Part shown: positions 212-40,740 of the stretch, piece after piece
Layout: every line of letters begins with the position of its first letter
Position numbering within the stretch: the stretch's first letter is position 1
Assembly (NCBI GenBank): GCA_031459625.1
Contig: JAVKIH010000020.1
Span: forward strand, 1 to 44,533
Direction: 5' to 3'
DNA length: 44,533 nt
From: Candidatus Geohabitans tengchongensis
GTDB taxonomy: Bacteria; Sysuimicrobiota; Sysuimicrobiia; Sysuimicrobiales; Humicultoraceae
Notes under the pieces: model-generated
What the model was told of the DNA's origin: nothing
Database searches by the model: none
The model's input: only the letters and a program-made list of their open reading frames with translations
Position numbers and translations under genes: made by a program

Positions 212-874
212 ATGAGAATCGCTCGGTTGCACGTATTAGACATTCTTACACCGAGTTGGCATCCTCGGCCGAACACACTGGTCTCGAACTACGCTTATCT
301 TGTTATCTCCAGCGCTGGAGTCCTGTTATTCGATACGGGTTTGGGTCCCCCCCACAGCTGGATTGACGACCACTGTCGGCCCAAGAGGTATGATCTGGTT
401 GCTCTCCTGCGTGAGAAGGGCGTGTTGGTAAGTGACGTGGATGTGGTGGTCAACTGCCACCTGCACTTCGACCATTGCGGCGGCAATCACCTGTTCAAAG
501 GCGCTCGATTCGTGGTCCAGCGCACAGAGCTCGAGGAAGCCCGGACTCCCAATTACACGGTACGTGAATGGTTCGACTTCACGGGCGCTCGGTTTGAGAT
601 AGCTGACGGCGAGCACGAAATTTGGGCGGGCGCCACGGTTTTTCCGACCCCGGGCCACACCATGGGTCATCAGTCGCTTATCTTGGATAGTCCGAAAGGC
701 ATTGTTGTCCTCGCTGGTCAAGCCGCAGAGTCGCCCGAGGGGTTTGAGGAGGGAACTGGTAGTTGGGAGCCGGACCGCCAAGACATCGGTGCGGCCAGCA
801 TTGCTCGCTTGAAGGCGATGTCGCCGACGCGTGTGATGTTCGCTCACGACGCGTCTGAGTGGCGTCGGGGCTAA
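212..874 (+). CDS. Metallo-beta-lactamase-fold hydrolase, N-acyl homoserine lactonase (AiiA/AttM-like) family
   Basis: 220 aa ORF with LFDTG, HLHFDHCGG (HxHxDH), TPGHTMGH and a terminal FAHD motif; visibly lower GC than its neighbours. Confidence 0.85.
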   Translation: MRIARLHVLDILTPSWHPRPNTLVSNYAYLVISSAGVLLFDTGLGPPHSWIDDHCRPKRYDLVALLREKGVLVSDVDVVVNCHLHFDHCGGNHLFKGARFVVQRTELEEARTPNYTVREWFDFTGARFEIADGEHEIWAGATVFPTPGHTMGHQSLILDSPKGIVVLAGQAAESPEGFEEGTGSWEPDRQDIGAASIARLKAMSPTRVMFAHDASEWRRG

Positions 875-1016: not shown

Positions 1017-2498
1017 CTACCGCAGCGGCCGGAAGGTCTCGGCGAACCCCTCCGCCTGGAAGCGCACCACCTGCCCCCGAACCCGTCCCTCGACGGTGTA
1101 GACGCCCCGCACCTGCAGGAACACCAGTCGGGCGGGTGCGCCTTCCGGCGCCGCGGGGGTGGCGACGACGTCCCGCACCGCCACCGTCACGGCCAGACGG
1201 TCCCCGGCGTCGTTGGCCGCCCGGTACGTCATCCGTCCCGGCACCCGCACCGGGCGCCCATCCACCGTCCGGACCATCCGCCACGCCCCGAAGACGGGAG
1301 GGGTGGCGCGCAGCGTGGCCAGCAGGCCCGGCCGCGGACCTCCCGCGTACAGGGCGAGGAACATCTCCTGTCCGCGCACGGCCGGGTGGTGGAGTTGCCC
1401 GGCGAGGAGGGCAAACGTGGCCGTGCTGGCCGTGCCCCACTCCCACGTCACCGCCTCCCACACCCCCCAGTTGTGGTCGTGGTAGGCGACCCCCGCCAGC
1501 GGGACGGTCCGGGCGCCGAGGCGCAGCGCGCCATGGGCGGCGGCGCGCAGCGCCGGGACGACGTACCCCGAGCGGAACCCGCCGGTGCCGCTCCACTCCA
1601 CGGGGGGGAAGACCAGCCCCGGTACCGGCCGCACGGTCAGGTCGAGGCTCGCCTCCGCCCGGCGCAGGCGTATCCGGTAGATCCCGTCCTGCAGATCGAT
1701 GCGGTGGGGCCCTGCCCGGAAGGCGAGCGCGTCCGCACGCCCCGCCGGTGCCACGGGGAGGACGGTGTCGGTGTGGACCTCCTCCCAGCGCACGTGGCGG
1801 CCGTCGGGTAGCCGCAGGCTGAGACCGACCTGGACCCGCCCGTCGCGCGCGGCCACGAAGGCGAGGTAGCCGTAGGTGCCGCTGCGGTCGATGAGGTTGA
1901 AGTACCACCACTCCGCCCAGGTCCGTCCCGCCGGGCCCGGGGTCGGGCGGTGGAACCGGTCGATCGTCGCCAGCAGCGTGGCGGGGTCCGGCCGCAGCCA
2001 GGCCCGGTCGGCGGCGGTGTCGCGCCAGGCCGGCCCGGGTACGGCCAGGGCACTGCGCGCCGCCCGGGCGGCCTCGGGCAGGGCGGCGCTGGCGCGCGCC
2101 GGCAGGCCCTCCGGCGGGCCGTTCCCCTCGGCGGGCTCCACGGGGCGCACGTAGACCAGACGGTCCGTGACCTCGGGGGAGACGGCGGCGACGTCGTCGG
2201 CGTACCGCGGCCCCAGGAGGACCTGCCGCGCCAGGTAGCGCGCGTTGGGGATGGCCAGGTACATCGCCGTGACGCCGCCCACCTTGAGGAGCTCGGGGTC
2301 CACGCCCTCGGGGAGGAGGACCAGGTCGCCGCCGGCCACCAGGTCGCGGTCCTGCGCCTGCAGGAGCAGGGCGTCCCCCACCGCCAGGAGCGCCACCATC
2401 ACGCCCACGCCCAGCCCGTACCCCAGCAGGAGGACGAACGTGCGGCGCGGCCGCGTCCCCAGCGCGCGCCGGGCCAGGAGCAGCGCCGCGGCGGTCAT
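1017..2498 (-). CDS. Fusion of a MacB/FtsX-type permease N-terminal half and an AttH/CrtC-like (lipocalin-fold) domain
   Basis: N-terminus [19 protein letters not shown] followed by a TM helix, typical of MacB TM1; C-terminal part has EWWYFN and AYHDHNWG motifs typical of AttH/hydroxyneurosporene-synthase/tocopherol-cyclase-like proteins. Confidence 0.7.
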
Positions 2499-2550
2499 GC
2501 CGGCACCCCGTGGCGAGGGACCTGACGCTGGCCCGGTCCGCGCCGGCGGG

Positions 2551-3240
2551 TCACATCAGCACCCCGTCGCGGATGGTGAGCACCCGCGGCGCCCGCGCGG
2601 CCAGCTCGGGGTTGTGGGTCACCACCACCACGGCCACCCCCGCCGCGTGCACGCGCCCCAGCAGGTCGGCTACCTGCCGCCCGGTCTCCTGGTCGAGCTC
2701 CCCCGTGGGCTCGTCGGCCAGCAGGAGCGCCGGGCCGTTGGCCAGCGCGCGGGCGATGGCACCGCGCTGCAGCTCGCCGCCGCTCAGCTGGCCGGGCAGG
2801 TGGCGGGCGCGCCTCTCGAGCCCCACGTAGCGCAGCAGCGCGGCCACCCGGGCCTCGCATTCCCGCGGCGGCACTCCCGCCTCCAGCATGGGCAGCAGGA
2901 CGTTCTCGGCCAGCGTCAGCATCGGCAGGAGGAAGAAGCGCTGGAAGACGAAGCCCACACGCCGCAGCCGCAGCGCCGAGAGCGCGGCGTCGCTCAGGCG
3001 GTGGGTGGGCTGCCCGAAGAGGCGGACCTCGCCGGCGGTGGGGAGGTCCACGCCCCCCATCAGGTGGAGCAGGGTGGACTTGCCGCTCCCCGAGGGCCCC
3101 ACGATGGCGAGGAACTCCCCGGCCCGCACCTCCAGCGTCACCCCGCGCAGCGCGTGGACGGCGCTGCCGTCGAGGCGGTAGGTGCGGGTGGCCTCGCGCA
3201 CCTCCACCAGCACCTCGCCCGGGGCGGCCGGGTGCAGCAC
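2551..3240 (-). CDS. ABC transporter ATP-binding protein, LolD/MacB (MJ0796) type
   Basis: Walker [22 protein letters not shown] signature, ADEPTG, VTHN; GTG start at 3240 with GAGGTGG upstream (alternative GTG at 3249). Confidence 0.92.
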
Positions 3241-3250
3241 GGTTTCCACC

Positions 3251-4420
3251 TCACTGCACCTCCCGGTGCAGCGTGGCCGCCACGTTGAGGCGGCCGGCCA
3301 CCCAGGCTGGGTAGGCGGCGCCCAAGGTGCCGGTGAGGAGGAGCAGCGCCACGGTGCGTGCCACCGCGGCGGGGCTCCCCACGAAGAAGTGCAGTTCGCA
3401 CGGGACGCCCGGGGCGCTGCGCAGGATGGCGTCGAGCGGGTCGCTGATCGCCGCACCGAGCAGGAGGGCCAGGGGCGTGCTCACGCCGGCCACGACCAGC
3501 CCCTCCATCAGGATGAGCAGCACCAGCCGGGCGCGGGAGAGGCCGATGGCGCGCAGGGCGGCCAGTTCCCCCAGCCGCTCGCCCACCGCCAGGGTGAGGA
3601 CCGCGCCGATGAGCAGGAAGGCGACGAGCAGGCTGACGGCGCTCAGCACCGTGGCGAAGTGGGCGAAGTAGGTGAGCTGCCGGCGGATCTCCGCGACGAT
3701 GGCCGCCACGGAGAGGGCGTCCAGCGCCGGGAAGGCGTCCTCGATCCAGGCGGCCACCCGCTCGGGGTCGGCCCCCGGCCGCACCTTCACCAGGAGGAGC
3801 GAGGCCTCCCCGGCACCGGCCCCGAGCAGGGCCTGGAGGTCGGCAAGTGGCAGCGCCAGCGTACGCTGCCCCGCCAGGTCAAAGGCGAACTCGCCCAGCG
3901 CCCCCACCCGCACCGTGATCACGCGCTCGGGGGTCCCGGTCTGCGGGCTGATGCGCGTGGCCAGCCGCAGGGTGTCCCCCGGCCGGAGGTCCAGCGCCTC
4001 GGCCAGCGGGCGGTTCACCACGACGCCCGCACGGCCCGGTCCCTCGACGCGCACGATGTCGGGAACCTCGGGGGTGAGGCCGTAAGCGAAGGCGGCGCGC
4101 CGCCGTTCGTTCGCTTCCGCGTAGAGGGTCGTACCCAGCAGCGGCGCCGCCCAGGCCACCTCGGGGTGGGCGGCGATGCGCCGCGCGGCCCGCCCGGCGT
4201 CGGGGATGGTCGCCTCGGTGGCGAAGGGCAGCGTCCCCGCGGGCAGGACGCGCAGCTCGTAGTGCAGGCGTCCCAGGCTGAGGGCCAGGCTGCGCTCCAG
4301 CCCGCCGCCCAGCATCGACATGTCGAAGAGCAGCGCCCCGGCGATGGTGACCCCGGCCACGAGCAGCACCGTGCGCGAGAGGGCGCGGCGCAGCGTCCGC
4401 CGGGCCAGCAGCCAGACCAT
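3251..4420 (-). CDS. FtsX/MacB-family ABC permease (full length)
   Basis: TM1, periplasmic domain, ERLGELAALRAIG motif, three C-terminal TMs, LHRE-type tail. Confidence 0.9.
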   Translation of the reverse strand: MVWLLARRTLRRALSRTVLLVAGVTIAGALLFDMSMLGGGLERSLALSLGRLHYELRVLPAGTLPFATEATIPDAGRAARRIAAHPEVAWAAPLLGTTLYAEANERRRAAFAYGLTPEVPDIVRVEGPGRAGVVVNRPLAEALDLRPGDTLRLATRISPQTGTPERVITVRVGALGEFAFDLAGQRTLALPLADLQALLGAGAGEASLLLVKVRPGADPERVAAWIEDAFPALDALSVAAIVAEIRRQLTYFAHFATVLSAVSLLVAFLLIGAVLTLAVGERLGELAALRAIGLSRARLVLLILMEGLVVAGVSTPLALLLGAAISDPLDAILRSAPGVPCELHFFVGSPAAVARTVALLLLTGTLGAAYPAWVAGRLNVAATLHREVQ

Positions 4421-5431
4421 CAGCGTCCCACCTGCTCCAGCGGCGGCCGACGGAGCAGCCGGGCCGCCACCGCCGCCCCCGCCCCCACCCCCAGGACGAC
4501 CGCCAGCACCGCGGCGGCCAGCAGGGTCTGCGGCACCAGCACCGCGAAGCGCAGGCGCGTCTCGAAGAGCGGGCGGTAGTAGGCGTTGATGGCGGCGACG
4601 AGGGCGGCGCCCACTCCCATCCCCACCAGCGTCCCCAGCAGCGCCGCCGCGGCGGCGATGGCCAGGACGGCCAGCCCGATGGTGGCGCGGCTCACGCCCA
4701 GCAGGCGCAGGGCGCCGATCTCGCGCCGCATCTCCGTGAGCTTCAGGCTCATGATCGTCACGAGGAAGATGGCGCCGGCCAGCAGCGTGACGACGCCGAT
4801 GGCGCGGTGGAAGCGGGAGACCACGACGAAGGTGCGCGAGACGTGGCGCGCCACCTCCTCCGCCGTGTAGACGTCCACCCCCGGGACCAGCGCGTCCAGG
4901 TCGCGCGCCACGACCTCGGCACGCTGCCGGTGGCGCAGGCGCACCACCACCCGGTCGACCACGTCCGCCGGCCCGGCTCCATCGCCGGCATCCTGCGCCG
5001 GATTGCCGCCGCGCGCGGGGAGGCGGTCCGGGGCCGGGGGGCGGCCGGGGGGCGCAGGGCGGTCGCGCGCCAGTTGGCGGTTGCGCACCGGGGTGCGGTC
5101 AGCGGCCAGGAGGGATTCCAGGTCGGGCAGGTGGAAGCGGAGGAGGAGGTCCTCGCGGGCCACGTCCGCCGGGTGCTCGGGCGGCGCCCAGACCACGGCC
5201 ACGCGGAAGCGGCGGCGGGCGCCCTGCTCCGTGAAGGGGCGGGGGCTGACCTCGATCACAGCGCCGGGGCGCAGTCCCAGGCGCCGGGCGGTGCGCTCGG
5301 GTACGGCGACGGCGGGAAGGTCGTCGGTCGAGGCCGCAGCGGCCGTCCCCGCCGCAGCGTCCGCGGCGACGGGGCGTGCGCTCACCAGGGTAAGGACGAG
5401 CAGGAGGAGGAGCATCCCGACCCACCTTACC

Positions 5432-5433
<2 letters not shown>
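4420..5433 (-). CDS. FtsX-family ABC permease C-terminal half with N-terminal signal peptide
   Basis: MVRWVGMLLLLLVLTLVSARPVAA (signal-peptide-like); EMRREIGALRLLG motif and C-terminal TMs; start at ATG 5433 or ATG 5415. Confidence 0.8.
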
Positions 5434-6220
<787 letters not shown>

Positions 6221-6287: not shown

Positions 6288-6362
6288 GCGGGAGTAGCTC
6301 AGAGGCAGAGCGTCTCCTTGCCAAGGAGAAGGCCGCGGGTTCAATTCCCGTCTCCCGCTCCA
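6288..6362 (+). tRNA. tRNA-Gly(GCC)
   Basis: GCGGGAG/CTCCCGC acceptor stem, TCTCC-TTGCCAA-GGAGA anticodon arm, TTCAATT T loop, encoded CCA. Confidence 0.97.
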
Positions 6363-6438
6363 GCGGACTGCCGAACACAACTCGGTCCGGACCGGGTTCA
6401 TCACGATACGGACAGTCGGTCGGACGACCGGCGCCCGA

Positions 6439-6513
6439 GGCGGCGTAGCCAAGAGGCAAGGCAGGGGTCTGCAAAACCCCCATTCCCCGGTTCGAATCCG
6501 GGCGCCGCCTCCA
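6439..6513 (+). tRNA. tRNA-Cys(GCA)
   Basis: GGCGGCG/CGCCGCC acceptor stem, GGGGT-CTGCAAA-ACCCC anticodon arm, TTCGAAT, U73 discriminator, CCA. Confidence 0.97.
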
Positions 6514-6560
6514 ATCCTTAGTCAGGCCCGGAACCTCACACGCGCTGCTGCAGACCACTC

Positions 6561-6647
6561 TGGTGGGCAGGGTGGGATTCGAACCCACAAGCCCTGGCGG
6601 GCAAGGGGGTTTAAGCCCCTCGCGTATCCCTGTTCCGCCACCTGCCC
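6561..6647 (-). tRNA. tRNA-Leu(TAA)
   Basis: Reverse strand: GGGCAGG/CCTGCCC acceptor stem, AGGGG-CTTAAAC-CCCCT anticodon arm, long variable arm, TTCGAAT, ACCA end. Confidence 0.96.
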
Positions 6648-6651
6648 GGCC

Positions 6652-8076
6652 TCATTGTACCTGCAGGTGCGCCGTCGGGTCGATGCCCGCGGCCTCCGGG
6701 TCCACCGCCCGCACGATGTGCCGCTCCGGGTCGTCCTCCAGGTCCAGCGTGTACGGCGCGATGGGGTCGTGGAAGCGGTTCTGCACGACCCGCAGCACCG
6801 GGCGCGTGAGCTCCCGCTCGCCCGGCCGGAGGACGACCCCCAGCTCCCCGGTGTCCAGCTCCACCAGCGACCCCACCGGGTACAGCCCCAGGGCGTGGAC
6901 GAAGATACGCGCCAGCACCGGGTCGAAGATCGTGCCGGCCTTGTCCAGGATGAAGCGCATCGCCTCGACCGGGGCCATGGGCCGGTGGTAGGGGCGGCGC
7001 GCGGAGGTGGCGGCGTCGAAGAAGTCGGCGATCTGCACGATGCGGGTGACCAGGTGGGGGAAGCGGCGGGTGCCGATGCGTGGGTAGCCGGAGAGGTCGT
7101 AGTTGGCGTGGTGCTCGAAGGCGGCGATGAAGGCCACGCGGGCCAGGCCCGGCAGGTTGCGCAGCAGGTGGGCCCCGTAGACCGGGTGGCGGCGCATCAC
7201 CACCTGCTCCTCGGGCGTGAGCGCTGCCGCCTTTAGCAGGATCTCCCGCGGCACCCGCACCTTGCCGATGTCGTGCAGCAGCCCGGCCAGCCCGATGGCG
7301 ATGAGCCGGGCCCGGTCGACGTTCAGGCGCTCCGCCATGAGCAGCGCCAGGACGGCGACGTTGAGCGAGTGGTGCGCGGTGTCCTCGTCGTAGGCGCGCA
7401 GCGCGCTGATGCCCAGCAACCCGGCGCGGTCCTCCATGATGATGTCCACCAGCGAGTTCACGACCATCCGGGCCTTGCGCATCTCCAGGGGCAGGCCGCG
7501 GGAGGCCTGGAAGGTCAGCTCGTCCGCCACGCGCAGCCCGGCCCGGTAGGCGTCGCGCGGGTCCACCCGGAGGCGCAATTCCTCCGGCGCGGCCGGCGCC
7601 GGCCCGACGGTGATGTGGCGCACGCCGCGCCGGGCCAGGGCGTGGCTGGCGCCGCCCCCGCGGCGCAGTTCCGCCGCCGGCAGGTTGAGGACCTCGACGA
7701 GGTGCTGCAGCTCCTCCACCTCCACCCCGGCGTGGAACTCCAGCACGCCGACCTCCCGCTCGCGCAGGTCGAGGAGCAGGGCGTAGAGCTGCAGGCTCTC
7801 CTCCAGCAGGACGGTCCGCTCCACGTAGAAGGTGTCCTCGTGGATGGCCAGGCGCAGGGAGTGCCCGGCGGCCACCAGGCCGGCCAGGATGCCGTGGGCC
7901 TCGCGCATCGTCGAGGCCACGACGGGGTGGCCCGCCCCGTAGAGGGCCGCCGTGCGGCGGGCGCGGGCGATGACCCGCAGGACGTCGCCCGGCTGCAGCG
8001 GCCGCCGACGGGCCTCCCCCTCGGTCTGGCCCCACAGGCTGCGGGACGGGGTGGGCACTGCGGCCGCCTCGCTCAT
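6652..8076 (-). CDS. HD-GYP domain c-di-GMP phosphodiesterase-like protein
   Basis: HSLNVA, LHDIGK, EHHANYDLSGYP, IADFFDA, RPYHRPM motifs; ATG overlaps the upstream stop (ATGA) with GGAGG upstream. Confidence 0.88.
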   Translation of the reverse strand: MSEAAAVPTPSRSLWGQTEGEARRRPLQPGDVLRVIARARRTAALYGAGHPVVASTMREAHGILAGLVAAGHSLRLAIHEDTFYVERTVLLEESLQLYALLLDLREREVGVLEFHAGVEVEELQHLVEVLNLPAAELRRGGGASHALARRGVRHITVGPAPAAPEELRLRVDPRDAYRAGLRVADELTFQASRGLPLEMRKARMVVNSLVDIIMEDRAGLLGISALRAYDEDTAHHSLNVAVLALLMAERLNVDRARLIAIGLAGLLHDIGKVRVPREILLKAAALTPEEQVVMRRHPVYGAHLLRNLPGLARVAFIAAFEHHANYDLSGYPRIGTRRFPHLVTRIVQIADFFDAATSARRPYHRPMAPVEAMRFILDKAGTIFDPVLARIFVHALGLYPVGSLVELDTGELGVVLRPGERELTRPVLRVVQNRFHDPIAPYTLDLEDDPERHIVRAVDPEAAGIDPTAHLQVQ

Positions 8077-10127
8077 CGCGACGACCTCCCGCTCCCTGCG
8101 GCGACGGCCGCCTCGGCGGCGGCCAGGGCGCGGCGGGCCAGGTCGCGCAGCGTGCGCTGGCGCCCCCAGGCGAGCCGTCCACTCACCAGGCGGCGGAGGA
8201 TGGGGACGACCTCCGGCCCGCCCAGGCGCTCCAGCGCCTCGAGGGCCGCCCGCTTCAGCTCGAAGAGCCGGTGCATGGGGTCGGGGCGATCCAGCAGCGC
8301 GGTGAGCTCCGGGAGCGCCAGGCGCAACCCCTCGGCGTTGAGCGCCTGCAGCGCCCGCAGGACGATGCGCCCGTCCGGGTCGCGCAGCAGCGCCACCAGG
8401 TGGCGCTGCGCCTCGGCCGTCCCGAGGCGCGCCAGCGCGTCCACCGCCTCGCGCCGGACGCGGTACTCCTCGTGGCGGAGCAATCCCGCCAGCGCCGGGA
8501 CGGCCGAGGGGTCGCCGATCCGGCCCAGCACGTCCGCCAGGTTGCGGACCAGGTACCAGCGTCCGTCGCTCAGGTGCGCGGTCAGTTCCGCCACGCGTCC
8601 CCGGCCCAGCGCCGCCAGCAGGTCGCACAACATGGCGCGCATCCCCGCGCGCGGTTCGCTGCCCAGCGCCCGCACCAGCGGGCCCACTGCCGTCCTGCCC
8701 AGGGCCTGCAGGCAGGCCCGTGCCCCAGCCTCGTCGGGGGTCCCGCGCGTGGCCCAGAGCACGGTGAGCAGCGTCTCCAGGGTCTTGCCCTCGGCGGCCC
8801 GGCCGAGCACCTGGGCGGCGGCGGCCTGGGCCGGCCCGGCGGTCTGGGCCAGGGGGTTCAGCTCCCGCAGCAGGCCCTCCAGGACCGCCAGGTGGCGCCG
8901 CTCTGCCAGCCAGGGGAGGTGGGCGCTCAGGGCGTCGGCGACCTCGGCCAGCTCCGCCGGGTCCTCCTCGTTGCGCAGGACGTCGACGAGCGTGCGCACC
9001 GCGTCCACGGTCAGGCTCTCGTCGCTGATGGCCTGTGCCTCGCGCACCCGCTGTTCGAACTCCTCCTGGCGGACGATGGCCTGGCTCTCGTCGAAGGCGA
9101 ACTCCGCCAGCAGCTCGGCGGCGGTGGCGATCGTGGGCTGGAGCAGCGGGCGCAGGGCCTCGCGCAGCCACCCTTCGGGCGTCCCCAGCCGGGGCGCCAG
9201 CGCCGCCACCACTGCCTCCGCGCGCAGGGGCCCGGGAGCCAGTTCGGTGAGGAGCCGGACCGCCTCCGGGACGTCTGCCCCCGAACGCACGATCAGGTCG
9301 GCGAGCTCCGCCGGGGCCAGCTGGTCGACGAGGAGGCGGGCGGAACTGTCGTTGCCGGCCCGGAAGAGCAGCGTGCGTGCCAGCGCTGAGCCGAGCGGCT
9401 CCTCCAGGTGGAAGGGGGCGTGGGCCAGGGCGTCGTAGAGGGTGGGCTGCTCCTCGAACGGTTCGTCGAGGGCCAGCCGGTCCAGGGTCCGCAGGGCGCG
9501 GTAGACGCGGTCGACCTGGTCGGCGGGCGGGCTCTCCGGGAAGACCTCCAGGGTCAGGGCGTGGACGTTCTGGAGGAGCCGCGCGGCCGACCCGGCGCCG
9601 CCGCGCACGATCTCCAGCAGGCGCTCCCGTTCGGGCCCGGCCAGTCGCCCCGCGCCGATCAGCTCGTAGAAGACGCTCATGCCGAGGCTCTCCGCCGCCT
9701 CTTCCTGCTCGAGCGCCATCTCGACGACCTGGACGGTGCCCACCTCGGCCGCCCAAAGGAGGTCCGCGACCCCGCCGGAGGCCTCCAGGCTCATCCGATC
9801 GCGCGCCACCGCGCCGAGGAAGGCGGCCAGGTCCCGCCGGGTCGCCGCCGGCAGGATGGTCACCTGGGCGACCTTGCGCGTGTAGAGGTGGAAGGCCAGG
9901 TCGGCGAAGGGGACGCCGTCCAGGACCTGCCCGTCGACCGTCAGCGCGTGCTTCGCCACCCGGACCGTGAAGGGCCCGGTGCCGTCCAGGTACGGGCGCA
10001 GTTCGCCCTCGAACCTCTCGAGCGCCTGGTCGGCTGCCGGATGCGGCGGCGGGTAGAGGGTGAAGGCTTTGACCGCCGCGTTGAGCCGTCGCAGCAGCCG
10101 GTCCGCCGCCTGCCCCTGCGACTCCAT
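8073..10127 (-). CDS. HEAT/PBS-lyase repeat protein
   Basis: C-terminal HEAT repeats (WYLVRNLADVLGRIG, VRREAVDALARLG, LKRAALEALERLG); ATG 10127 with GAGGGAG upstream (alternative GTG at 10163). Confidence 0.8.
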   Translation of the reverse strand: MESQGQAADRLLRRLNAAVKAFTLYPPPHPAADQALERFEGELRPYLDGTGPFTVRVAKHALTVDGQVLDGVPFADLAFHLYTRKVAQVTILPAATRRDLAAFLGAVARDRMSLEASGGVADLLWAAEVGTVQVVEMALEQEEAAESLGMSVFYELIGAGRLAGPERERLLEIVRGGAGSAARLLQNVHALTLEVFPESPPADQVDRVYRALRTLDRLALDEPFEEQPTLYDALAHAPFHLEEPLGSALARTLLFRAGNDSSARLLVDQLAPAELADLIVRSGADVPEAVRLLTELAPGPLRAEAVVAALAPRLGTPEGWLREALRPLLQPTIATAAELLAEFAFDESQAIVRQEEFEQRVREAQAISDESLTVDAVRTLVDVLRNEEDPAELAEVADALSAHLPWLAERRHLAVLEGLLRELNPLAQTAGPAQAAAAQVLGRAAEGKTLETLLTVLWATRGTPDEAGARACLQALGRTAVGPLVRALGSEPRAGMRAMLCDLLAALGRGRVAELTAHLSDGRWYLVRNLADVLGRIGDPSAVPALAGLLRHEEYRVRREAVDALARLGTAEAQRHLVALLRDPDGRIVLRALQALNAEGLRLALPELTALLDRPDPMHRLFELKRAALEALERLGGPEVVPILRRLVSGRLAWGRQRTLRDLARRALAAAEAAVAAGSGRSSR

Positions 10128-10255
10128 CGCTCCCTCGAACGCCCCCCCCTGCGCGTGCTCCACAGGGCGGCGACCTGTCCCCCAGCGGACATGCCCAAGA
10201 CCGCGCCGCCGTTAGTCGGCTATCCTGAGGGGCGATGACCGGGGCAGGGGGCGTC

Positions 10256-11524
10256 ATGGCCGACCTCATCGACGACCGCGAGGTGGACGTCGCGGTCATC
10301 GGCGCCGGCATCGTCGGCCTGGCCACCGCCGACGCCCTGCTGCAGCACCTCCCCGCCCTGCGCCTGGTGGTGCTGGAGCGGGAAGGGCGCGTCGGCGCCC
10401 ACCAGACCGGCCACAACAGCGGCGTGGTCCACTCGGGGTTCTACTACCGGCCGGGGTCGGCCAAGGCGCGGCTGTGCGTGGAGGGCGGCCGGCTGCTGGC
10501 CGCGTTCTGCGAGCAGCACGGGATCCCCCTGGAGCGGTGCGGGAAGGTGGTCGTCGCCGCCACGCCGGAGGAGGTCCCGCGGCTGGAGGTCCTCTACGAG
10601 CGGGGGCGGGCCAACGGTGTGCCCGGGCTCGAGCGCATCGGCCCCGAGCGCCTGCGCGAGCTCGAACCGCACGCGACCGGGGTGGCGGCGCTCTGGTCGC
10701 CCGGGACGGCCATCGTGGACTTCGGGGCGGTGGCCCGGGCGCTGGCCGAGCGGGTGAGCCGGGCGGGCGGCCAGGTCGCGTTGGGCGCGCGGGTCGTGGG
10801 CTTCGCCCGCCGGGAGGGACGCTGGCTCGTCCACACGGAGCGGGGGACGGTGCGGGCGCGGGTGGTGGTGAACTGTGGGGGCGTCTACGCCGACCGCCTC
10901 GCCCGCCTGGCCGGCGGGCGTCCGGACGTGCAGATCGTCCCCTTCCGCGGCGAGTACTACCGCCTGCGCCCGGCGTGGCGGCACCTGGTCCGCGGGCTCA
11001 TCTACCCGGTCCCCGACCCCGCCTTCCCCTTCCTCGGGGTGCACCTGACCCGCACGGTCCACGGCGAGGTGGAGGCCGGCCCCAACGCCGTCCTGGCCTT
11101 CGCCCGGGACGGCTACCGCCCGACCGATGTGCGCCTGCGCGACCTGACCGAGTTGCTGCGCTACCGGGGGTGGTGGCGGATGGTGCGCCGCTCCTGGCGC
11201 GCCGGCGGGATGGAGCTGGCCCGCTCGCTCAGCCGCCGGGCCTTCGTGCGCAGCGTGCAGCGCCTGGTGCCGGCGGTGACGCCGGCGGCGGTGGAGCGCC
11301 ATGGTGCGGGGGTGCGGGCGCAGGCGGTGGCCCCGGACGGCACGTTGGTGGACGACTTCCGGATCGTGGAGGCGCCGGGCGCCGTCCACGTCCTGAACGC
11401 CCCCTCACCAGCGGCCACCGCCTCGCTGGCCATCGGCCGGCACATCGCCGGCCTGGCCGCGGTGCACCTCGAGGGGCCTCGGGCCGCCGTGCGCGGGGTG
11501 CCCGCCCCTCACATCGGCCCGTAG
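10256..11524 (+). CDS. lhgO: L-2-hydroxyglutarate oxidase (FAD-dependent)
   Basis: IGAGIVG Rossmann motif, HQTGHNSGVVHSG, PFRGEYY, IYPVPDP-FPFLGVH, AGVRAQA, NAPSPAATASL. Confidence 0.9.
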   Translation: MADLIDDREVDVAVIGAGIVGLATADALLQHLPALRLVVLEREGRVGAHQTGHNSGVVHSGFYYRPGSAKARLCVEGGRLLAAFCEQHGIPLERCGKVVVAATPEEVPRLEVLYERGRANGVPGLERIGPERLRELEPHATGVAALWSPGTAIVDFGAVARALAERVSRAGGQVALGARVVGFARREGRWLVHTERGTVRARVVVNCGGVYADRLARLAGGRPDVQIVPFRGEYYRLRPAWRHLVRGLIYPVPDPAFPFLGVHLTRTVHGEVEAGPNAVLAFARDGYRPTDVRLRDLTELLRYRGWWRMVRRSWRAGGMELARSLSRRAFVRSVQRLVPAVTPAAVERHGAGVRAQAVAPDGTLVDDFRIVEAPGAVHVLNAPSPAATASLAIGRHIAGLAAVHLEGPRAAVRGVPAPHIGP

Positions 11525-12516
11525 GGGCCGGCGAGCTCCTCGAAGTCCTCCTCCACGGGCTGCTCCTCCAGCAGGGTGAGCGGCCGGAAGACCGCGCGCG
11601 CCTTGCCCTGGGCCTTCGCCTCGCGTAGCGCGCGGTCGGCCTGCTCCAGGAGGGCGCTCGTGGGCGCATCGCCGTGCTCCGCCGGGACGTAAGTGGAGAC
11701 GCCGATGCTGATGGAGACGCGGATGGTGGCCTCGCTGGTGTGCACCGTCTCCTCGGCGACGGTCCGCCGCAGCCACTCGGCCAGCTCCATGGCGTTCTCC
11801 GTGCTGGCCCCCGGGAGGAGCCAGACGAACTCCTCGCCCCCGTACCGGGCGACCAGGTCCACCGCCCGCCGCCGGCCGGCCAGCACGCGGCCGATCCGCC
11901 GCAGCACCTCGTCCCCCGACTGGTGCCCGTAGCGGGCGTTGATCTGCTTGAAGTCGTCGATGTCGAAGAGCAGGACGGAGAGCGGCTGGCCGCTCCGCCG
12001 CGCCCGCTCCATCTCCAGGAAGACCTGCTCGTCAAACGTCCGGCGGTTGGGCAGGGCGGTGAGGGGGTCGCTGCTGGCCAGCTGCTCCAGGAGGCGGTTC
12101 TTCTCCCGCAGCTCGTCCTGCAGCGCTTTGACCCGCAGCGCCGCCCGCACCCGCGCCAGCAGCTCGGCGGTGTTGAAAGGCTTGGTGACGTAGTCGTGGC
12201 CTCCGAGCTCCAACCCCTGGATGCGGCTGTCGACCTCGTCCCGGGCGGTCATGAAGATCACGGGGATCTCCCGGGTGACGGGGTCGGCCTTCAGCTCCCC
12301 GATCACCGTGAAGCCGTCCACGTCCGGCATCATCACGTCGAGCAGCACCAGGTCGGGCTCGTGGGTGCGCGCCAACGCCAGGGCCTCGGCCCCCCGCGGC
12401 GTCGTGACCACCGCCGCGCCCATCGATTCGAGGCGCAGGCGCAGCATGCTCAGGATGGAGGGCTCGTCGTCGACGACGAGGATGCGGGGCGTCTGGCCGT
12501 CCTTGGAGAGACTCAT
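11509..12516 (-). CDS. Response regulator diguanylate cyclase (REC-GGDEF, PleD/WspR-like)
   Basis: REC domain (VVDDE, DLVLLDVMMP, TKPF), DPLT, GGEEF active site with RAVD I-site; GGAGG RBS. Confidence 0.93.
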   Translation of the reverse strand: MSLSKDGQTPRILVVDDEPSILSMLRLRLESMGAAVVTTPRGAEALALARTHEPDLVLLDVMMPDVDGFTVIGELKADPVTREIPVIFMTARDEVDSRIQGLELGGHDYVTKPFNTAELLARVRAALRVKALQDELREKNRLLEQLASSDPLTALPNRRTFDEQVFLEMERARRSGQPLSVLLFDIDDFKQINARYGHQSGDEVLRRIGRVLAGRRRAVDLVARYGGEEFVWLLPGASTENAMELAEWLRRTVAEETVHTSEATIRVSISIGVSTYVPAEHGDAPTSALLEQADRALREAKAQGKARAVFRPLTLLEEQPVEEDFEELAGPYGPM

Positions 12517-12660
12517 GCCGGCACCTCCCCCCGCCGCGGGGTGGCTGCCGGTCGGGTCAGGCCTGTGGGGACGGCCATTGGGGCACATAGGAGACGTGCA
12601 CCCCGTCGCATGCCCCGGGAGTTCCCGCAGCCCGGTCCGCCGCCGGGGTCAGGCTGACCC

Positions 12661-15033
12661 ATGCCCCGACTGACCGCCTCCACCCTGCCGCTGGCCATCG
12701 GCTTCATTGAGATCCTGCTCGGGACCGCCATGCTCATCTCCGCCCCTGCGGCGTTCGCCGAGCCGGGGCGGCGGATCACCGTCGCGGGCACCGCCTACGT
12801 CTCGGCCGGCGTCATCGCCTGCATCCTGCACGTCCACGGCCCCGGCCTGGGACGCCGCGTCCGCCTGCTCGGGGGCCTGTTGGTGGCCGTGCCGCTGCTC
12901 GTCGGCGCCTGGAACGCCGGGCGGATGGGCGTTCCGGGCGGCGTCGTGGTCTTCGGCCTGCTGGCCCCGCTCTACGTGCTGGCCGGGTGGCAGGACGACC
13001 CCCGCGACCCGGAGCCGGTCGGCCTCGACGCGCTGGTCTGCGCCGTCCTGCTGATCGAGGCCGCGCTGGGGGCGCTCCTCCTGGCCGCCCCCGGCACCTT
13101 CCGCCATCCGCTCTATGCCCAGGTTCTGCGCATCCGCCCCCTGGTGGCGGGGGCGTTACTGACCGGCGCGGCGGCGCTGGCCCTGTCGCTGCGCCTGCGC
13201 CACGTGCTCCTCCGCCTGGCGGCCTACACCGCGGGGGCGGTCCCGCTGGTCGGGCTGGCCGTCCTCTTCGTCCGCGCCCTGGGATGGTGGCCGGGGTTCT
13301 TCGTCTACCCGATGCTGGCGGCCTTCCTGGTGGCGCACCCCTGGTTCCAGGAGGCGCTGGCCGACCGGGTGCGTGCGGCGGCGGCGCGGCCGAGCTCCGC
13401 CGCGGTCGAGCGCATCATCGAGGCGGTGGTGTGGGCCGCCATCCTGCTCGTCACGCTGGCCGGGAACATGGCCCAGGCGCCGGTGAACCGCGTCGGGCTG
13501 TACAGCCTGGCCTTCGCCGCCAGCCTCTTCACCCTGGTCTGGTTCCGGTTGCGCCCGGGGCCCAACCCGCGCTTGCGCACCCTCTACGGCAACGCGTTCT
13601 ACACCATCTTCGTGGCGCTGACGGCGCGTTTCACCGGCGGGCTCCATAGCCCGCTCTTCTTCCTCTACTATCTGCCCATCCTGGCCACGGCCTGGACCCT
13701 GGCCCCGCGCGACATCCGCGTGCCTGCCGGCATCGGGGTGGTCAGCATGGGCCTGGAGACAGCGCTGGCCGTGCGCGGCGGCGCCCCGCTGGGCGAGGTG
13801 GCCGGACTGGCCGTCTTCCGGGTGACGGGGCTGCTCTTCGTCGCGGTCTTCGCCTACCTCCTCTCCCGGCGGGCCGTCGAGCAGCGGGCGCTGCGGCGTC
13901 AGGAGCGGGAGCGCCTGGAGGCCATCCTCGGCAACATGGCCGAGGGCCTGGTGGTCCTCGACCAGGCGGGGCGGATCGCGCTGCTCAACCGCGGCGCCGA
14001 GCGCCTGGTCGAGGGGTCGGCCGCCACGGTCACCGGGATGCCTTTCCAGGAGGTCTTCCACCTCCAGCGGGAGAACGGCGGCCAGTTCCGGGACGCCGAC
14101 CACCCCGTCACCGCCGCCCTGCGGCGCGGCCAGGCCACCCGCCAGCGCGTCCTGGTGCGCCGGGCCGGCGGCGACCTCCTCCCCGTCTCCCTCACCGCCG
14201 CACCCTTCTACGACCCGGCGGGCGGCGCGCTCGGGGTGATCTGCACCCTGCAGGACGTGCGGGTCGAGGTGGAGATGGAGCGGATGCGCGAGGACTTCTT
14301 CTACATCGCCTCGCACGAGATCCGCACGCCGCTGACGGTCATCAAGGGGAACATCGAGCTGGCCCTGGACGGGTCGCTGGGGGCGCTCTCGGACGGGGTC
14401 CGCCGCGTCCTCGGGGAGGTGCACGAGGCGACGGTGCGCCTGATCCGGCTGGTGAACGACTTCCTCAACGCCGCCCGCCTGGAGCACGGGAAGATCACCC
14501 TGCACATCGAACGGAGCCACCTGCCGGAGGTCGTCGGGCAGGTCATCGAGACGCTGGCCCCCGATGCCCGGCGCAAGGGCCTGACGCTCACCTACCGGCT
14601 GCCCGAGGTGGGGACGCTCCCGGCGGTGCTGATGGACCCGGAGAAGGCCATCCAGGTCCTGCTGAACCTGGTGGGCAACGGGATCAAGTTCACTGAGCGG
14701 GGCGGGGTGGAGATCTGGCACGAGGTGCGCGACGGGCTGGTGGAGACCCACATCCGCGACACCGGCCCGGGGATCCCCGCCGACCAGCGCCACCGCCTCT
14801 TCGAGCGCTTCAGCCAGCTCGGCCGGGGGCTCACCCGGGACACCGGCGGCAGCGGCCTGGGGCTGTACATCTCCCTGAAGCTGGCCGAGCGGATGAACGG
14901 GACGGTCTACCTGCGCGCCAGCGAGCCGGGCGCCGGCAGCACCTTCGTCTTCGCCCTGCCGGTGGCGGCGGAGGAGGAGCGGCGCGCCTGGCCCCGCCCT
15001 CCGGCCGTCAGCGAACGAACAGGAACCAGATAA
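12661..15033 (+). CDS. Multi-TM PAS-domain sensor histidine kinase
   Basis: Hydrophobic N-terminal ~400 aa, PAS (MAEGLVVLD...LNRGAERL), H-box ASHEIRTPL, NGIKFT, DTGPGI, GSGLGL. Confidence 0.92.
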   Translation: MPRLTASTLPLAIGFIEILLGTAMLISAPAAFAEPGRRITVAGTAYVSAGVIACILHVHGPGLGRRVRLLGGLLVAVPLLVGAWNAGRMGVPGGVVVFGLLAPLYVLAGWQDDPRDPEPVGLDALVCAVLLIEAALGALLLAAPGTFRHPLYAQVLRIRPLVAGALLTGAAALALSLRLRHVLLRLAAYTAGAVPLVGLAVLFVRALGWWPGFFVYPMLAAFLVAHPWFQEALADRVRAAAARPSSAAVERIIEAVVWAAILLVTLAGNMAQAPVNRVGLYSLAFAASLFTLVWFRLRPGPNPRLRTLYGNAFYTIFVALTARFTGGLHSPLFFLYYLPILATAWTLAPRDIRVPAGIGVVSMGLETALAVRGGAPLGEVAGLAVFRVTGLLFVAVFAYLLSRRAVEQRALRRQERERLEAILGNMAEGLVVLDQAGRIALLNRGAERLVEGSAATVTGMPFQEVFHLQRENGGQFRDADHPVTAALRRGQATRQRVLVRRAGGDLLPVSLTAAPFYDPAGGALGVICTLQDVRVEVEMERMREDFFYIASHEIRTPLTVIKGNIELALDGSLGALSDGVRRVLGEVHEATVRLIRLVNDFLNAARLEHGKITLHIERSHLPEVVGQVIETLAPDARRKGLTLTYRLPEVGTLPAVLMDPEKAIQVLLNLVGNGIKFTERGGVEIWHEVRDGLVETHIRDTGPGIPADQRHRLFERFSQLGRGLTRDTGGSGLGLYISLKLAERMNGTVYLRASEPGAGSTFVFALPVAAEEERRAWPRPPAVSERTGTR

Positions 15034-15164: not shown

Positions 15165-15240
15165 GCCCACGTAGCTCAGGCGGCAGAGCGTGTCCTTGGT
15201 AAGGACAAGGTCACCGGTTCGAGTCCGGTCGTGGGCTCCA
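15165..15240 (+). tRNA. tRNA-Thr(GGT)
   Basis: GCCCACG/CGTGGGC acceptor stem, TGTCC-TTGGTAA-GGACA anticodon arm, TTCGAGT, CCA. Confidence 0.97.
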
Positions 15241-15272
15241 CGACTGCGGGCGGTCGCGCCCGAGGCCACCGG

Positions 15273-15304
15273 GGGTTAGGGGACGCAGGTCCCTTAACCC
15301 TTTT
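15273..15304 (+). terminator. Intrinsic terminator-like hairpin between tRNA-Thr and tuf
   Basis: GGGTTAGGGGAC-GCAG-GTCCCTTAACCC 12-bp stem followed by TTTT. Confidence 0.6.
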
Positions 15305-15366
15305 CAGCGCTCGCCCGTCGGGCGGGCCCGGCCGGGGGGACCAGGGCCTCATACGGGAGGACGGGG

Positions 15367-16590
<1,224 letters not shown>

Positions 16591-16657
16591 GGCACCGCGC
16601 CTCCCCGGCCTGCGGTCCCGCCGTGGCGCGGTGAGCGTCTAGAGGGGATGGACGAGG

Positions 16658-16810
16658 ATGCCGAGGGATGTGATCACGCTGGCGTGTTCCGTGTGCAAGC
16701 GGCGGAACTACGTCACGACCAAGAACAAGAAGAATGATCCGGACCGCCTGGAGCTGAGAAAGTACTGCCGGTGGTGCCGGAAGCACACGCCGCACAAGGA
16801 GACCCGCTGA
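16658..16810 (+). CDS. rpmG: 50S ribosomal protein L33 (zinc-binding C+ type)
   Basis: Hand translation [50 protein letters not shown]; below the ORF-track size cutoff. Confidence 0.97.
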
Positions 16811-16813
16811 GCG

Positions 16814-16843
16814 TTGTCAGCCGGTCGGGACGCGCCCTATACT
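16814..16843 (+). promoter_or_regulatory. Sigma70-type promoter of tRNA-Trp
   Basis: TTGTCA (16814-16819), 18-nt spacer, TATACT (16838-16843). Confidence 0.7.
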
Positions 16844-16858
16844 GAGGTCGTCGGCCGC

Positions 16859-16933
16859 AGGGGCGTTCGTTAATAGGCAAGCGGCCGGTCTCCAAAACCG
16901 GTGCTGGGGGTTCGAGTCCCTCCGCCCCTGCCA
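16859..16933 (+). tRNA. tRNA-Trp(CCA)
   Basis: AGGGGCG/CGCCCCT acceptor stem, CCGGT-CTCCAAA-ACCGG anticodon arm, TTCGAGT, G73, CCA; canonical position after rpmG. Confidence 0.95.
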
Positions 16934-16978: not shown

Positions 16979-17713
16979 TCAACGCAGGAGTCCCAGTTCC
17001 TCCAGCCGGACGCGCATGGCGGCGGGCGTCACCTGGAACTCCCGCGCCAGCTCCCCTACCGCCCGCCGCGCGGCCTCCTCACGCTCGGCCCGCCCGGACG
17101 GCACCGCCAGCAGGGCCTGGTACCGCCGGAACCGCTGGCGGACCTCTCCGGCCGGCATCAGCAGCTCGGCGGCAAAGGCCCGGGCCTCCCGCTCCTCCCG
17201 CGCCCGTTCCGCTTCGAGGAGGCGGTCCGGGGCGCCCGGGGCCGGGCTGGCCGCCAGCGCGGTGTGGCCGAGCACGGCGTGGGCCAGCTCCTCCGCGATG
17301 ACCCACCGGCGCTCGCCTACTGAGGTGAACGGGTAGTCCCGGTTCAGCAGCAGACGCACGCCGCCCTCCGTCCGGGCCACGCCGCCCCGCTCCCCCGCCG
17401 GCCGCCGCACCCACTCCACAGGGTGGGCCAGGAGGGCGGCCACCTGCTCCACGTCGACGGGCACACCCAGCCCGAACGCCGAGCGCACCTCCCGCGCTGT
17501 CCGCACCGCCGGCCGGTCGGCGGCCGCGGCCGGGGCCTCCACGGACCGGCGGCCGATCTCGCGGATCACCTCGGCCTGCTCAGGCGTGAAGGGGCGCCCG
17601 CCCGTCTCGAGCTGGAGGGTGCCGCAGGCGGGGCAGGTCCAGGCGACGGGGTCCTCGCAGGGGCTGGCGAACTCCGGCCCCATCTCCTCCCCGCACACGG
17701 GACACCAGCGCAC
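16979..17713 (-). CDS. Zn-ribbon + ImmA/IrrE (DUF955/peptidase M78)-like protein with an EExxH variant motif
   Basis: GTG start with GGAGGAGG RBS; CPVC...CPAC; PVDVEQVA; RRWVIAEELAH; EREARAFAAELLMP; LAREFQVTPAAMRVRL. Confidence 0.82.
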   Translation of the reverse strand: MRWCPVCGEEMGPEFASPCEDPVAWTCPACGTLQLETGGRPFTPEQAEVIREIGRRSVEAPAAAADRPAVRTAREVRSAFGLGVPVDVEQVAALLAHPVEWVRRPAGERGGVARTEGGVRLLLNRDYPFTSVGERRWVIAEELAHAVLGHTALAASPAPGAPDRLLEAERAREEREARAFAAELLMPAGEVRQRFRRYQALLAVPSGRAEREEAARRAVGELAREFQVTPAAMRVRLEELGLLR

Positions 17714-17980
17714 GTCTCCGCCTCCTCCGCTCCTGGCCCCAAATGGTCGTCTGATAGCGGCAGTGTACCGCGGATCCCCCCGGGTCTGCACGGCGGGTAC
17801 GTCGCCGACGTCGCGTCGCCGGGAGGGCCGAGCAGCGTGCCGTGGGGCGTAATCCCGCCCGCCGGGAACGGGCGCATCAGGAGCGCCGGGCCCAGCGGGT
17901 GGGGGGTATAGCCAGGGCCGAGCCGGATGCACGCGGGCTGGTGGGCCGGGATCCGCCCCGGCATAGGAGTTGCCCGACTT

Positions 17981-18200
17981 TCGGCGTATCTCACCCTCCA
18001 CAAGCGCCCGGCAGATTGCGGGTCCAGCCCGTCGTGGGAGGGTCGGTCCGTTGAGCGCACACTGCCCCGCCGGTGACGCCGCGGTCCCGGCAGCGTTCAG
18101 GCCGTCGGCCAGGGCCGGGGGCGGATCGTCGCGCTCACCGGTGAGCCCGGCATCGGCCCGTCGCGCCTTGTGGCGGAGCTGCAGGGTGAGACTCCGCGGC
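17981..18200 (+). pseudogene. Relic fragment of a cyclase-associated AAA ATPase gene
   Basis: One frame reads SAYLTLHKRPADCGSSPSWEGRSVERTLPRR*RRGPGSVQAVGQGRGRIVALTGEPGIGPSRLVAELQ; degenerate Walker A (K to P) and an internal TGA at 18074. Confidence 0.6.
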
Positions 18201-18290
18201 TGCGCCTCTGTCCGGGGATGGTGGTCCACGCCCCCCCCAGTCGGCTCCTCTCGCCGACGTCGTCGTGGAACGGGAGCGTCAGGAGTAGGC

Positions 18291-32648: not shown

Positions 32649-32665
<17 letters not shown>

Positions 32666-34079: not shown

Positions 34080-34693
34080 GGGTAGACCTCTTCCCAGCGG
34101 AGGATGGTCACCTGGTCCGGGGCGCGCGTCGGCCCCGGGCCGGCGTAGACCACCTCCACCAGCGCGCGGACCGTGCGGTCCTGCAGGAGGGTGAAGCTGC
34201 CGTCCGGCTCCTGGCGCCGCACTTCGCCCGTGGAGAGGAGCTCCCAGCGGCGGGTGCCGGGGTTGGTGCCGAGGGCCCCGGGGGCGACCGGGCAGAGCGT
34301 GGCGCCGCAGTTGAGGACACAGGTGCAGGTGACGGTGTAGCGGTGCGGTCCGCTCGCAGGCACGAGGACCGACCCCACGGCCCCCGCGTCGCGGTTGGCC
34401 TTGAAGGCGTAGAGCTGGTGTTCCACGCCGGCGGTGGCCAGGTAGAGGGCCTGCGTGTCCCAGCGGGTGCGCAGCTGGACCTCGAGCTCGGCCGTCGTCG
34501 TCTCGGCCAGGGCGGTGACGAGGAGCGCCAGGACGACCACGATGAGCAGGGCCAGCGGCAGCGCCACCCCCCGCTCGTCGCGCAGGACGGACGTCGAACC
34601 GCTACGGAACAGCACGGGGCCCGGACCCAGTGGTGGTTGGTGGTGAGGGCGGACGCCGCTCGCCCATGGATCGAGGGCAGGAATCGGTCTCAC
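34076..34693 (-). CDS. PilX-like minor pilin
   Basis: DERG|VALPLALLIVVVL (class III signal without E5), QALYLATAGVE, C-terminal WEE; start probably the GTG overlapping the upstream stop (alternative 34615). Confidence 0.75.
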   Translation of the reverse strand: MRPIPALDPWASGVRPHHQPPLGPGPVLFRSGSTSVLRDERGVALPLALLIVVVLALLVTALAETTTAELEVQLRTRWDTQALYLATAGVEHQLYAFKANRDAGAVGSVLVPASGPHRYTVTCTCVLNCGATLCPVAPGALGTNPGTRRWELLSTGEVRRQEPDGSFTLLQDRTVRALVEVVYAGPGPTRAPDQVTILRWEEVYP

Positions 34694-37023: not shown

Positions 37024-37035
37024 GCTCGTAGGGTT

Positions 37036-37059
37036 GGGGCTCGCCCGAAGGCGAGCCCC
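37036..37059 (-). other. Stable cUUCGg-tetraloop hairpin between the major and minor pilin genes
   Basis: GGGGCTCGCC / GGCGAGCCCC 10-bp stem; loop reads TTCG on the minus strand; no U tract. Confidence 0.6.
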
Positions 37060-37066
37060 GCCGGTC

Positions 37067-37438: not shown

Positions 37439-37521
37439 TGCCTGTCCTCCTTTCTCATGTAGTACCAGGGCTATATGCCCGGCTTGCCATACACCGAGAC
37501 CCCCGGCCTGTGCCGTGCCGC

Positions 37522-38715: not shown

Positions 38716-38719
38716 CCCC

Positions 38720-40606: not shown

Positions 40607-40696
40607 TCGACCACCATCCGTATGCTCAATTAGGGGAAGCTTCAGACGTTCCCGGGTCAGGGCGGTTGGGATGCTCCAGGGGCTCCGGACCGCCCT

Positions 40697-40725: not shown

Positions 40726-40740
40726 TCCTCGGGTTACGCC

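Follow-up and report, generated by a model that had tools for sequence, protein, structure and literature searches.

This work concerns a stretch of 44,533 nucleotides of Candidatus Geohabitans tengchongensis (assembly GCA_031459625.1, contig JAVKIH010000020.1, positions 1 to 44,533), called the window below. Near its beginning, the minus strand carries four closely spaced genes (5433-1017) that encode an ATP-binding cassette (ABC) transporter in the order C-terminal half of a permease, whole permease, ATPase and N-terminal half of a permease fused to a beta-barrel. The C-half P0001 (4420..5433, 337 amino acids (aa)) starts at 5433 or at an ATG at 5415, where the database gene calls place it, and its stop TGA shares one base with the ATG start of the full-length permease P0002 (3251..4420, 389 aa). 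The GTG start of the ATPase P0004 (2551..3249) lies one base past the stop of P0002, and the N-fusion P0003 (1017..2498, 493 aa) ends the operon. The reading frames drawn in an initial annotation of this DNA were all found in place on the minus strand.

Transporter class and the two permease halves

P0002 was a complete permease of the MacB/LolC type with four transmembrane segments (TMs). It matched the Pfam domain MacB_PCD over positions 1-206 of 207 (E 1.4e-12) and FtsX (E 4.2e-12), exhibited four hydrophobic segments, and its family profile matched LolF, MacB and LolE in the PDB. Invariant in the full permease were D33, M34, Y251, F252, P337-G338 and F345-F346. These residues lie in the shoulder loop and where TM1 and TM2 reach the periplasm, and their position suggests a conserved ligand site. 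The ATPase, whose motifs are intact, matched ABC_tran (E 8e-32), with LolD, MacB and FtsE as its top NCBIfam models. Over 111 operons, Walker A, D-loop and H-switch were present in all, the signature in 108 and the Walker B pattern in 103. The D-loop read DEPTGELD in 111 of 111. LolD and FtsE usually carry an asparagine at the glutamate of this motif, which could be used as a family marker.

Type VII ABC systems combine an ATPase of the LolD/MacB/FtsE class with a four-TM permease in which a large extracytoplasmic domain separates TM1 from TM2. By fold and motifs the operon is such a system; by family scores it is not LolCDE, MacAB or YbbAP. The permease reached 38.8 bits against lolCE, which has a cut-off of 362, and the ATPase stayed below the LolD cut-off with 220 versus 308 bits.

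The initial annotation had proposed, by eye, that two genes of the operon each match one complementary half of the full permease. Pairwise BLASTP bore this out for P0001 only (residues 150-301, E 2e-9), whereas the N-fusion showed no significant match to the full permease (best E 2.9). As pairwise comparison did not show the match seen by eye, a test with profiles was required. Family profiles, i.e. alignments built from related loci and compared by hhalign, did recover both halves: residues 4-144 of the N-fusion family aligned to residues 1-120 of the full permease (probability 91.3, E 1e-6), residues 39-331 of the C family to residues 130-380 (probability 99.7). The two ranges on the full permease do not overlap.

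The 207 positions of MacB_PCD served as an independent ruler. P0003 weakly matched positions 1-95 (E 0.008), its sole match in Pfam and NCBIfam. Twenty-one of 30 N-fusion homologs matched from position 1-4 to 78-117, all below the curated cut-off; the distant homolog P0339 matched 1-108 above it. P0339 and P0324 belong to the fusion family as distant members (~200 bits) that look low in GC and whose MacB_PCD N-half is clearer. Among the C-halves, 15 of 17 matched from 112-125 to 202-207 and all 17 matched FtsX, which in P0001 was the only Pfam match (E 4.5e-13). The halves thus meet near position 112-125 of the ruler. Family hydropathy gave one TM for the N-fusion, a leader plus three TMs for the C-half and four for the full permease. 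The boundaries of the halves were thus complementary, with the TMs split one plus three.

The AlphaFold2 model of P0001 (pLDDT 82) aligned to known type VII permeases from LolC 138-142, LolE 144 and A. actinomycetemcomitans MacB 396 onwards, with Z scores of 10-12 and a root mean square deviation (rmsd) of 5-10 Å over the whole chain; residues 38-113 superposed on the LolC periplasmic domain at 2.6 Å. In MacB, Sabre is described as residues 347-465 and Porter as residues 306-346 and 466-503 (PMC5985334). A C-half that begins at MacB 396 places the break inside Sabre and leaves one Porter motif to each gene. The N-half (P0003 residues 1-160, 2019..2498) would accordingly hold the amphipathic helix, TM1, the first Porter motif and the first half of Sabre; P0001 would hold the leader, the second half of Sabre, the second Porter motif, TM2, the major coupling helix, TM3 and TM4. 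In the single-chain models no strand was formed in P0003 51-108 or P0001 83-190, where the Porter strands are expected. Such unformed strands would be expected if each half needed its partner.

Two elements of the models concern the ATPase. The amphipathic helix before TM1 corresponds to a helix at residues 3-15 of the P0003 model, and the coupling helix between TM2 and TM3 to residues 236-244 of the P0001 model, with E234, R236, R243 and G246 invariant. In MacB, the amphipathic helix and the major coupling helix are both described as contacting the ATPase (PMC5985334). Since one lies in the N-half and the other in the C-half, a working second subunit would need both genes. Further invariant residues of the C-half (F202, R207, F208, H209) were found at periplasmic TM ends and in the shoulder loop. 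From sequence and models together, the halves likely rebuild one subunit.

The opposite possibility is that no subunit is rebuilt, the C-half being a three-TM partner and the N-piece a mere barrel anchor left from an old fusion. In its favor, the N-half stayed below the Pfam cut-off in 21 of 21 matches. The exact complementarity of the halves argues against it, as does the conservation of the periplasmic N-half beyond its TM (G56, G57, P108, A136, P141). Overall the N-half was as conserved as the barrel (0.56-0.64 and 0.49-0.54, respectively). Moreover, every locus with room held both pieces, and we regard this explanation as very improbable.

The split was not due to a frameshift or an assembly artefact, as the two halves are encoded by the first and the last gene of the operon. 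In 68 of 158 C-half reading frames, an in-frame stop lies no more than 45 codons from the first conserved strand, which leaves no room for an N-half there. The only flagged upstream match, in locus L112, was a frame of 326 codons, too short for a whole permease. In the one RNA run, a contig spanned 437-5562 without differences. Its depth equalled that of the flanks and contigs extended up to 97 kb, so that DNA carry-over is likely; this one run gave no evidence for transcription of the operon.

The C-half had been annotated as starting with a segment resembling a signal peptide, and this held as far as the hydrophobic leader is concerned. P0001 showed a hydropathy peak at residues 1-28. In 150 of 158 C-half frames, the 45 codons next to the first conserved strand contained a strongly hydrophobic 9-mer, versus 6 of 31 control stretches farther upstream. 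Lipoboxes were rare (3/158). Relatives carried short hydrophobic leaders, many ending in A-x-A-Q. The leader of P0001 is predicted as a Sec-type signal peptide of about residues 1-24 (5362..5433) ending in a V-A-A motif, after which it would be cleaved; it may instead be an uncleaved anchor. P0001 also contained a Pro/Arg-rich insertion of 40-45 aa (about residues 114-156, 4966..5094), delimited by sequence comparison and a low pLDDT of 54-63. It is lineage-specific: P0124 and P0125 shared it, P0126, P0127, P0133, P0139 and P0149 did not.

The fused beta-barrel

Beyond the N-half, the AlphaFold2 model of P0003 (pLDDT 88.6, pTM 0.82) was all-beta from about residue 190 to 491. The model further showed a helix at 17-49, which coincides with the single TM seen by hydropathy (18-48), and a hairpin at 109-139. 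Structure searches with the barrel retrieved Fsa2 (Z 25.2), NE1406 (Z 25.0; rmsd 3.3 over 281 aligned residues, 15% identity), CghA (Z 24.0), kievitone hydratase (Z 22.7) and 25-phosphosteroid lyase (Z 21.5), with the next unrelated entry at 9.2. Foldseek agreed (2ICH, E 6e-11). By its model and its invariant columns, the region of residues 174-493 (1017..1979) has the AttH fold, in which two flattened lipocalin-like barrels stand orthogonal to each other. CrtC, kievitone hydratase, hydroxy-GDGT synthase, 25-phosphosteroid lyase and Fsa2/Phm7/CghA share this double barrel (Z 21-25). Their identity to the barrel of P0003 is 10-15%, and in the sources seen none of these enzymes is described within an ABC permease.

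Sequence profiles did not find this relation. P0003 showed no match to CrtC or Lipocalin_9 (PF07143 and PF17186) at E up to 1, nor did any of 30 N-fusion homologs at E 0.05, and profile searches found no PF07143 in this genome or in five others. Sequence searches of the PDB with P0003 and the alignments A1 and A4 gave only TM1 of MacB-type chains (E 0.06-0.1) and no barrel match. The homologs gave weak Pfam matches to Tocopherol_cycl (15/30, four above the cut-off) and DUF7065 (3/30). Language-model look-alikes of the barrel fell into CrtC/Lipocalin, Svf1 and Diels-Alderase clusters. Of the earlier proposal of an AttH- or lipocalin-like C-terminal domain, the fold was thus retained by structure, whereas the expected Pfam match was not obtained.

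Invariant residues of the barrel included W194, E196, W197, G311-Y312, the motif Y339-H-D341-H-N343-W-G345, Q462 and E487. In CrtC, Tyr266 and Asp268 are reported as essential and Asp268 as the proposed acid (PMC4717167). The invariant Y339-x-D341 falls in a Y-x-D-x-N spacing that equals the one of this pair. The fold is common to lipid and terpenoid hydratases, a lyase and cyclases, and an AttH-like hydratase is reported to act on archaeal membrane lipids (10.1101/2025.10.20.683597).

Barrel relatives were also observed outside the operon. A stand-alone relative of 346 aa (locus L201:1100-2140, G116:C8) has no leader and no ABC genes and lies downstream of a gene for a protein of 240 aa of unknown function, without a Pfam or NCBIfam match at the thresholds used. 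It keeps both motifs, which indicates that these belong to the barrel itself. P0291 and P0381 carry barrel relatives within other proteins; in one, a class A beta-lactamase-like domain follows (553 aa, may be a gene-call artefact), while in the other the barrel starts a protein of 1201 aa. An unsplit permease with an internal barrel was not seen among the best 150 of 1755 representatives, where two long matches (704 and 720 aa) read like frameshifted runs of ATPase plus fusion. For unsplit forms above 1009 aa, the word search, with lengths of 864-1008 outside it, gave among its best matches one barrel-only protein without permease.

The invariant residues bear on the question whether the barrel is an enzyme. 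It could instead be a non-catalytic binder or buffer that passes a hydrophobic molecule on, similar to a tethered LolA or lipocalin, once the halves have reassembled. Many of its invariant residues are aromatic, Svf1 clusters among its look-alikes, and NE1406 was proposed to bind lipids, with its family linked to ABC transporters (PMC2954199). The invariant polar residues E196, H340, D341, H342, N343, Q462 and E487, however, suit catalysis, the solved matching folds with known activity are enzymes, and the leaderless stand-alone relative keeps the same motifs. A tethered barrel would also be unable to shuttle to the outer membrane. We consider a pure binder rather unlikely, yet the least unlikely of the alternatives.

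A switch as in FtsEX-EnvC would be a further option. The ABC unit would then transport nothing, and its ATP-driven motion would toggle the activity of the barrel toward an envelope substrate. Type VII systems are described to include pure regulators (PMC5985334), and the barrel is fused directly to the moving periplasmic head. On the other hand, two different permease subunits with invariant periplasmic residues suggest a conserved ligand site, and the full Sabre is kept here, whereas FtsX largely lacks it. This makes a switch improbable, more so than a binder.

Distribution and genomic surroundings

Among named relatives, those closest to P0003 carry the label Armatimonadota. When species genomes were scanned, at least 603 stretches matched, of which at least 492 were confirmed and 80 kept. 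The kept loci came mostly from Gemmatimonadota, but also from Armatimonadota, Eisenbacteria and Vicinamibacterales (Acidobacteriota). All four genes lay on one strand in 64 of the 80, including every one of the 60 loci with 3.2 kb or more of upstream sequence, in the order C-half, whole permease, ATPase, N-fusion among the loci listed. The barrel was fused to the N-half in 73 of 80 loci that covered the whole model. The reverse test, with the C-half as anchor in 80 metagenomic loci, found the other three genes in 33 of 33 with at least 2.3 kb downstream. No locus with sufficient room was without either half. Co-occurrence of both halves in other genomes, as the initial annotation had anticipated, was therefore complete wherever there was room. 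The results that it had named as fatal to its proposal, i.e. an overlap or large gap between the halves, a lack of co-occurrence or a domain other than AttH, did not appear.

Among 61 related genomes, the fusion was present in 21, with a weak N-terminal match only in three more. The C-half was found in 20, all among those 21, and in none of the 40 genomes without the fusion. The sole genome with the fusion and no C-half is 72% complete, and its contig ends within the whole permease. In a second phylum, both halves were on one contig in 20 of 71 genomes, neither in 50 and the barrel only in one. Each tally contains one unpublished genome (G018, G118); excluding these leaves 20 and 19 of 60 in the first tally and 19 of 70 in the second. 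The related genomes are kin and do not represent independent cases. The operon is spread patchily, which suggests an accessory function.

The distribution is also informative for the idea that the operon replaces the Lol pathway for lipoproteins, its barrel taking over the role of LolA. The present genome (94% complete) gave no LolA match, and apart from FtsX the operon holds its only FtsX-domain genes above the cut-off. However, a separate LolC/E-like gene (~330-390 bits) was found in five of five other operon-bearing genomes, one of them unpublished (G063), and LolA in four of the five. The operon was missing from 40 of the 61 relatives searched, and its permease scored 39 bits where lolCE requires 362. 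Coexistence with Lol already largely refutes this idea, which we hold to be extremely improbable.

Neighbors conserved across phyla were not found around the loci compared. In 30 of 80 loci (L024-L100), the operon was immediately preceded, on its own strand, by a gene for a DtxR/MntR regulator (mntR) and an Nramp/MntH gene (mntH), and in 25 of 80 DUF72 lay downstream. Both were confined to Gemmatimonadota-rich rows, and neither is common to this window.

In the window itself, a DrrA-like ABC ATPase gene (5432-6220, plus strand) lies head-to-head with the C-half gene, their ATG codons overlapping at 5431-5434. It has no adjoining permease and no close match in the other loci compared, and a cluster of tRNA-Gly, -Cys and -Leu follows within 6288-6647. 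On the other side of the operon, positions 1-900 have a GC content of 58%, versus 73% genome-wide, and this stretch looks recently acquired. It contains, at the contig end and convergent with the operon, a metallo-beta-lactamase-fold gene (212-874, plus strand) with the acyl-homoserine lactone (AHL) lactonase AiiA as top NCBIfam model, far below its cut-off. Farther along, tRNA-Thr, EF-Tu and tRNA-Trp (within 15165-16933) are followed by an IrrE/M78-domain gene (16979-18433), which may mark an inserted element. The regions 6655-15033 and 32649-40771 hold genes for HD-domain, HEAT-repeat, response-regulator GGDEF and PAS histidine kinase proteins and, farther along, an O-antigen-ligase-like gene, a type II/IV secretion ATPase with MshEN and PilC-like genes.

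Proposed machine and its relatives

We consider it reasonably probable that the reassembled split subunit of this type VII system holds the AttH barrel in the periplasm, where the barrel would receive, and probably modify, a lipid-like molecule from the membrane. An Omp85/BamA protein is present in the genome, so that a periplasm is expected outside the inner membrane; since the barrel follows a single TM, it is expected on this outer side. By analogy with MacB-family structures, the N-piece would supply TM1 with the amphipathic helix before it, the first Porter motif and half of Sabre. The C-piece, exported by its own leader, would complete Sabre and supply the second Porter motif, TM2-4 and the coupling helix. 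The leader would bring the N-terminus of the C-half to the same side as the head of the N-half and the barrel. With the full permease and two ATPases, an asymmetric complex of five chains from four genes would result.

Such a complex might work in the way suggested for known members of the class. For YbbAP-TesA, it was proposed that the transporter takes a hydrophobic molecule out of the inner membrane and presents it to the attached periplasmic enzyme (PMC12646458). By analogy with this system and with LolCDE, ATP binding would zip the stalk helices and push a hydrophobic substrate from the outer leaflet toward the barrel. There, acid-base chemistry via Asp341 (hydration, elimination or cyclisation) might follow, proposed because the Y-x-D-x-N spacing matches the catalytic Tyr266/Asp268 of CrtC; this is the least certain step. 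An extract-and-process machine like YbbAP-TesA, with the partner covalently built in, appears the most likely arrangement.

Several observations weigh against this proposal. The profile match of the N-half was moderate, as its hhalign probability of 91.3 dropped to 43.9 with the narrower alignment A1. Support for a contact between the halves was indirect. Agreement between gene trees was the same for the N-C pair (rho 0.927) as for the pairs with the full permease (N-F 0.923, C-F 0.918), so that it reflects operon inheritance only. Covariation between genes (mutual information with average product correction, MI-APC; 111 operons, a shallow set with an effective number of 75 at 80% identity) was no stronger for N-C (top z 6.3) than for the controls N-ATPase (7.1) and C-ATPase (8.3). 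As for the chemistry, 15% identity to NE1406 says nothing on the substrate of the barrel, and the equivalence of Y-x-D to CrtC comes from spacing and fold class, not from an alignment. The His239/Trp241 pair of CrtC has no counterpart at the same spacing, 27 residues upstream being Tyr312 and Val314. Finally, the operon has no biosynthetic neighbor that is conserved between phyla.

The operon shares features with several known systems, but also shows differences. With LolCDE-LolA and MacB it has in common the four-TM permease fold, a Porter/Sabre head, heterodimeric permeases and a separate LolD-like ATPase (PMC5985334, PMC11671585). It differs from LolCDE in scoring far below the lolCE and LolD cut-offs and in coexisting with true Lol genes, and from MacB in that no MacA or TolC gene is conserved nearby. 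In E. coli YbbAP-TesA, TesA is a separate hydrolase that docks on the fused ten-TM YbbP, whereas here the barrel is covalently joined to a split subunit. The YbbP model scored 15.6 bits of the 999 required, and the partner is an all-beta barrel instead of an SGNH hydrolase.

The nearest conceptual relatives are attEFGH of Agrobacterium, Rv0986-Rv0988 of M. tuberculosis and NE1404-NE1406 of Nitrosomonas, which likewise combine a LolD-like ATPase, two permease units and an AttH fold. In attEFGH and Rv0986-Rv0988, ATPase, permease units and a separate AttH gene are reported in one locus (PMC3982062), and a link of free AttH proteins to LolD-like ABC genes is described (PMC2954199, PMC3982062). 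In these systems, as far as described, AttH is separate and the permeases are whole or fused together; in the present operon, the barrel is fused to a half-permease and the other half has its own gene. The domain permutations given in a review of the class are fusions, with no monomer cut in two among them (PMC5985334). The literature covered, the scope of which did not extend to supplements and most subscription papers, contained no description of a split subunit joined to a barrel.

The origin of this arrangement is a matter of speculation. A circularly permuted permease-permease-ATPase unit, opened within one permease, could have entered a free attH-like gene after the part for its signal peptide, and the present gene order would result in one step. 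Taking all of this together, the family might constitute a widespread, undescribed type VII class with a subunit naturally cut in Sabre and a catalytic barrel in its head, i.e. an ATP-fed, extracytoplasmic lipid or terpenoid hydratase or cyclase, which would have arisen from one insertion, with circular permutation, into an attH-like gene. We offer this bolder reading tentatively and give it less credence than the proposed machine itself.

Type VII ABC systems are defined by the partner on their periplasmic head (LolA, EnvC, MacA, TesA). By cutting a permease in two, the present family would hard-wire a fifth kind of head partner, an AttH-fold barrel, and mark a position in Sabre that tolerates a chain break. 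The fusion would act as a Rosetta stone for the unexplained link of AttH proteins to LolD-like transporters, a link that a system of four genes from a non-pathogen allows to be tested directly. If the bolder reading is true, the free AttH proteins of attEFGH-type operons would work as docked transporter partners as well.

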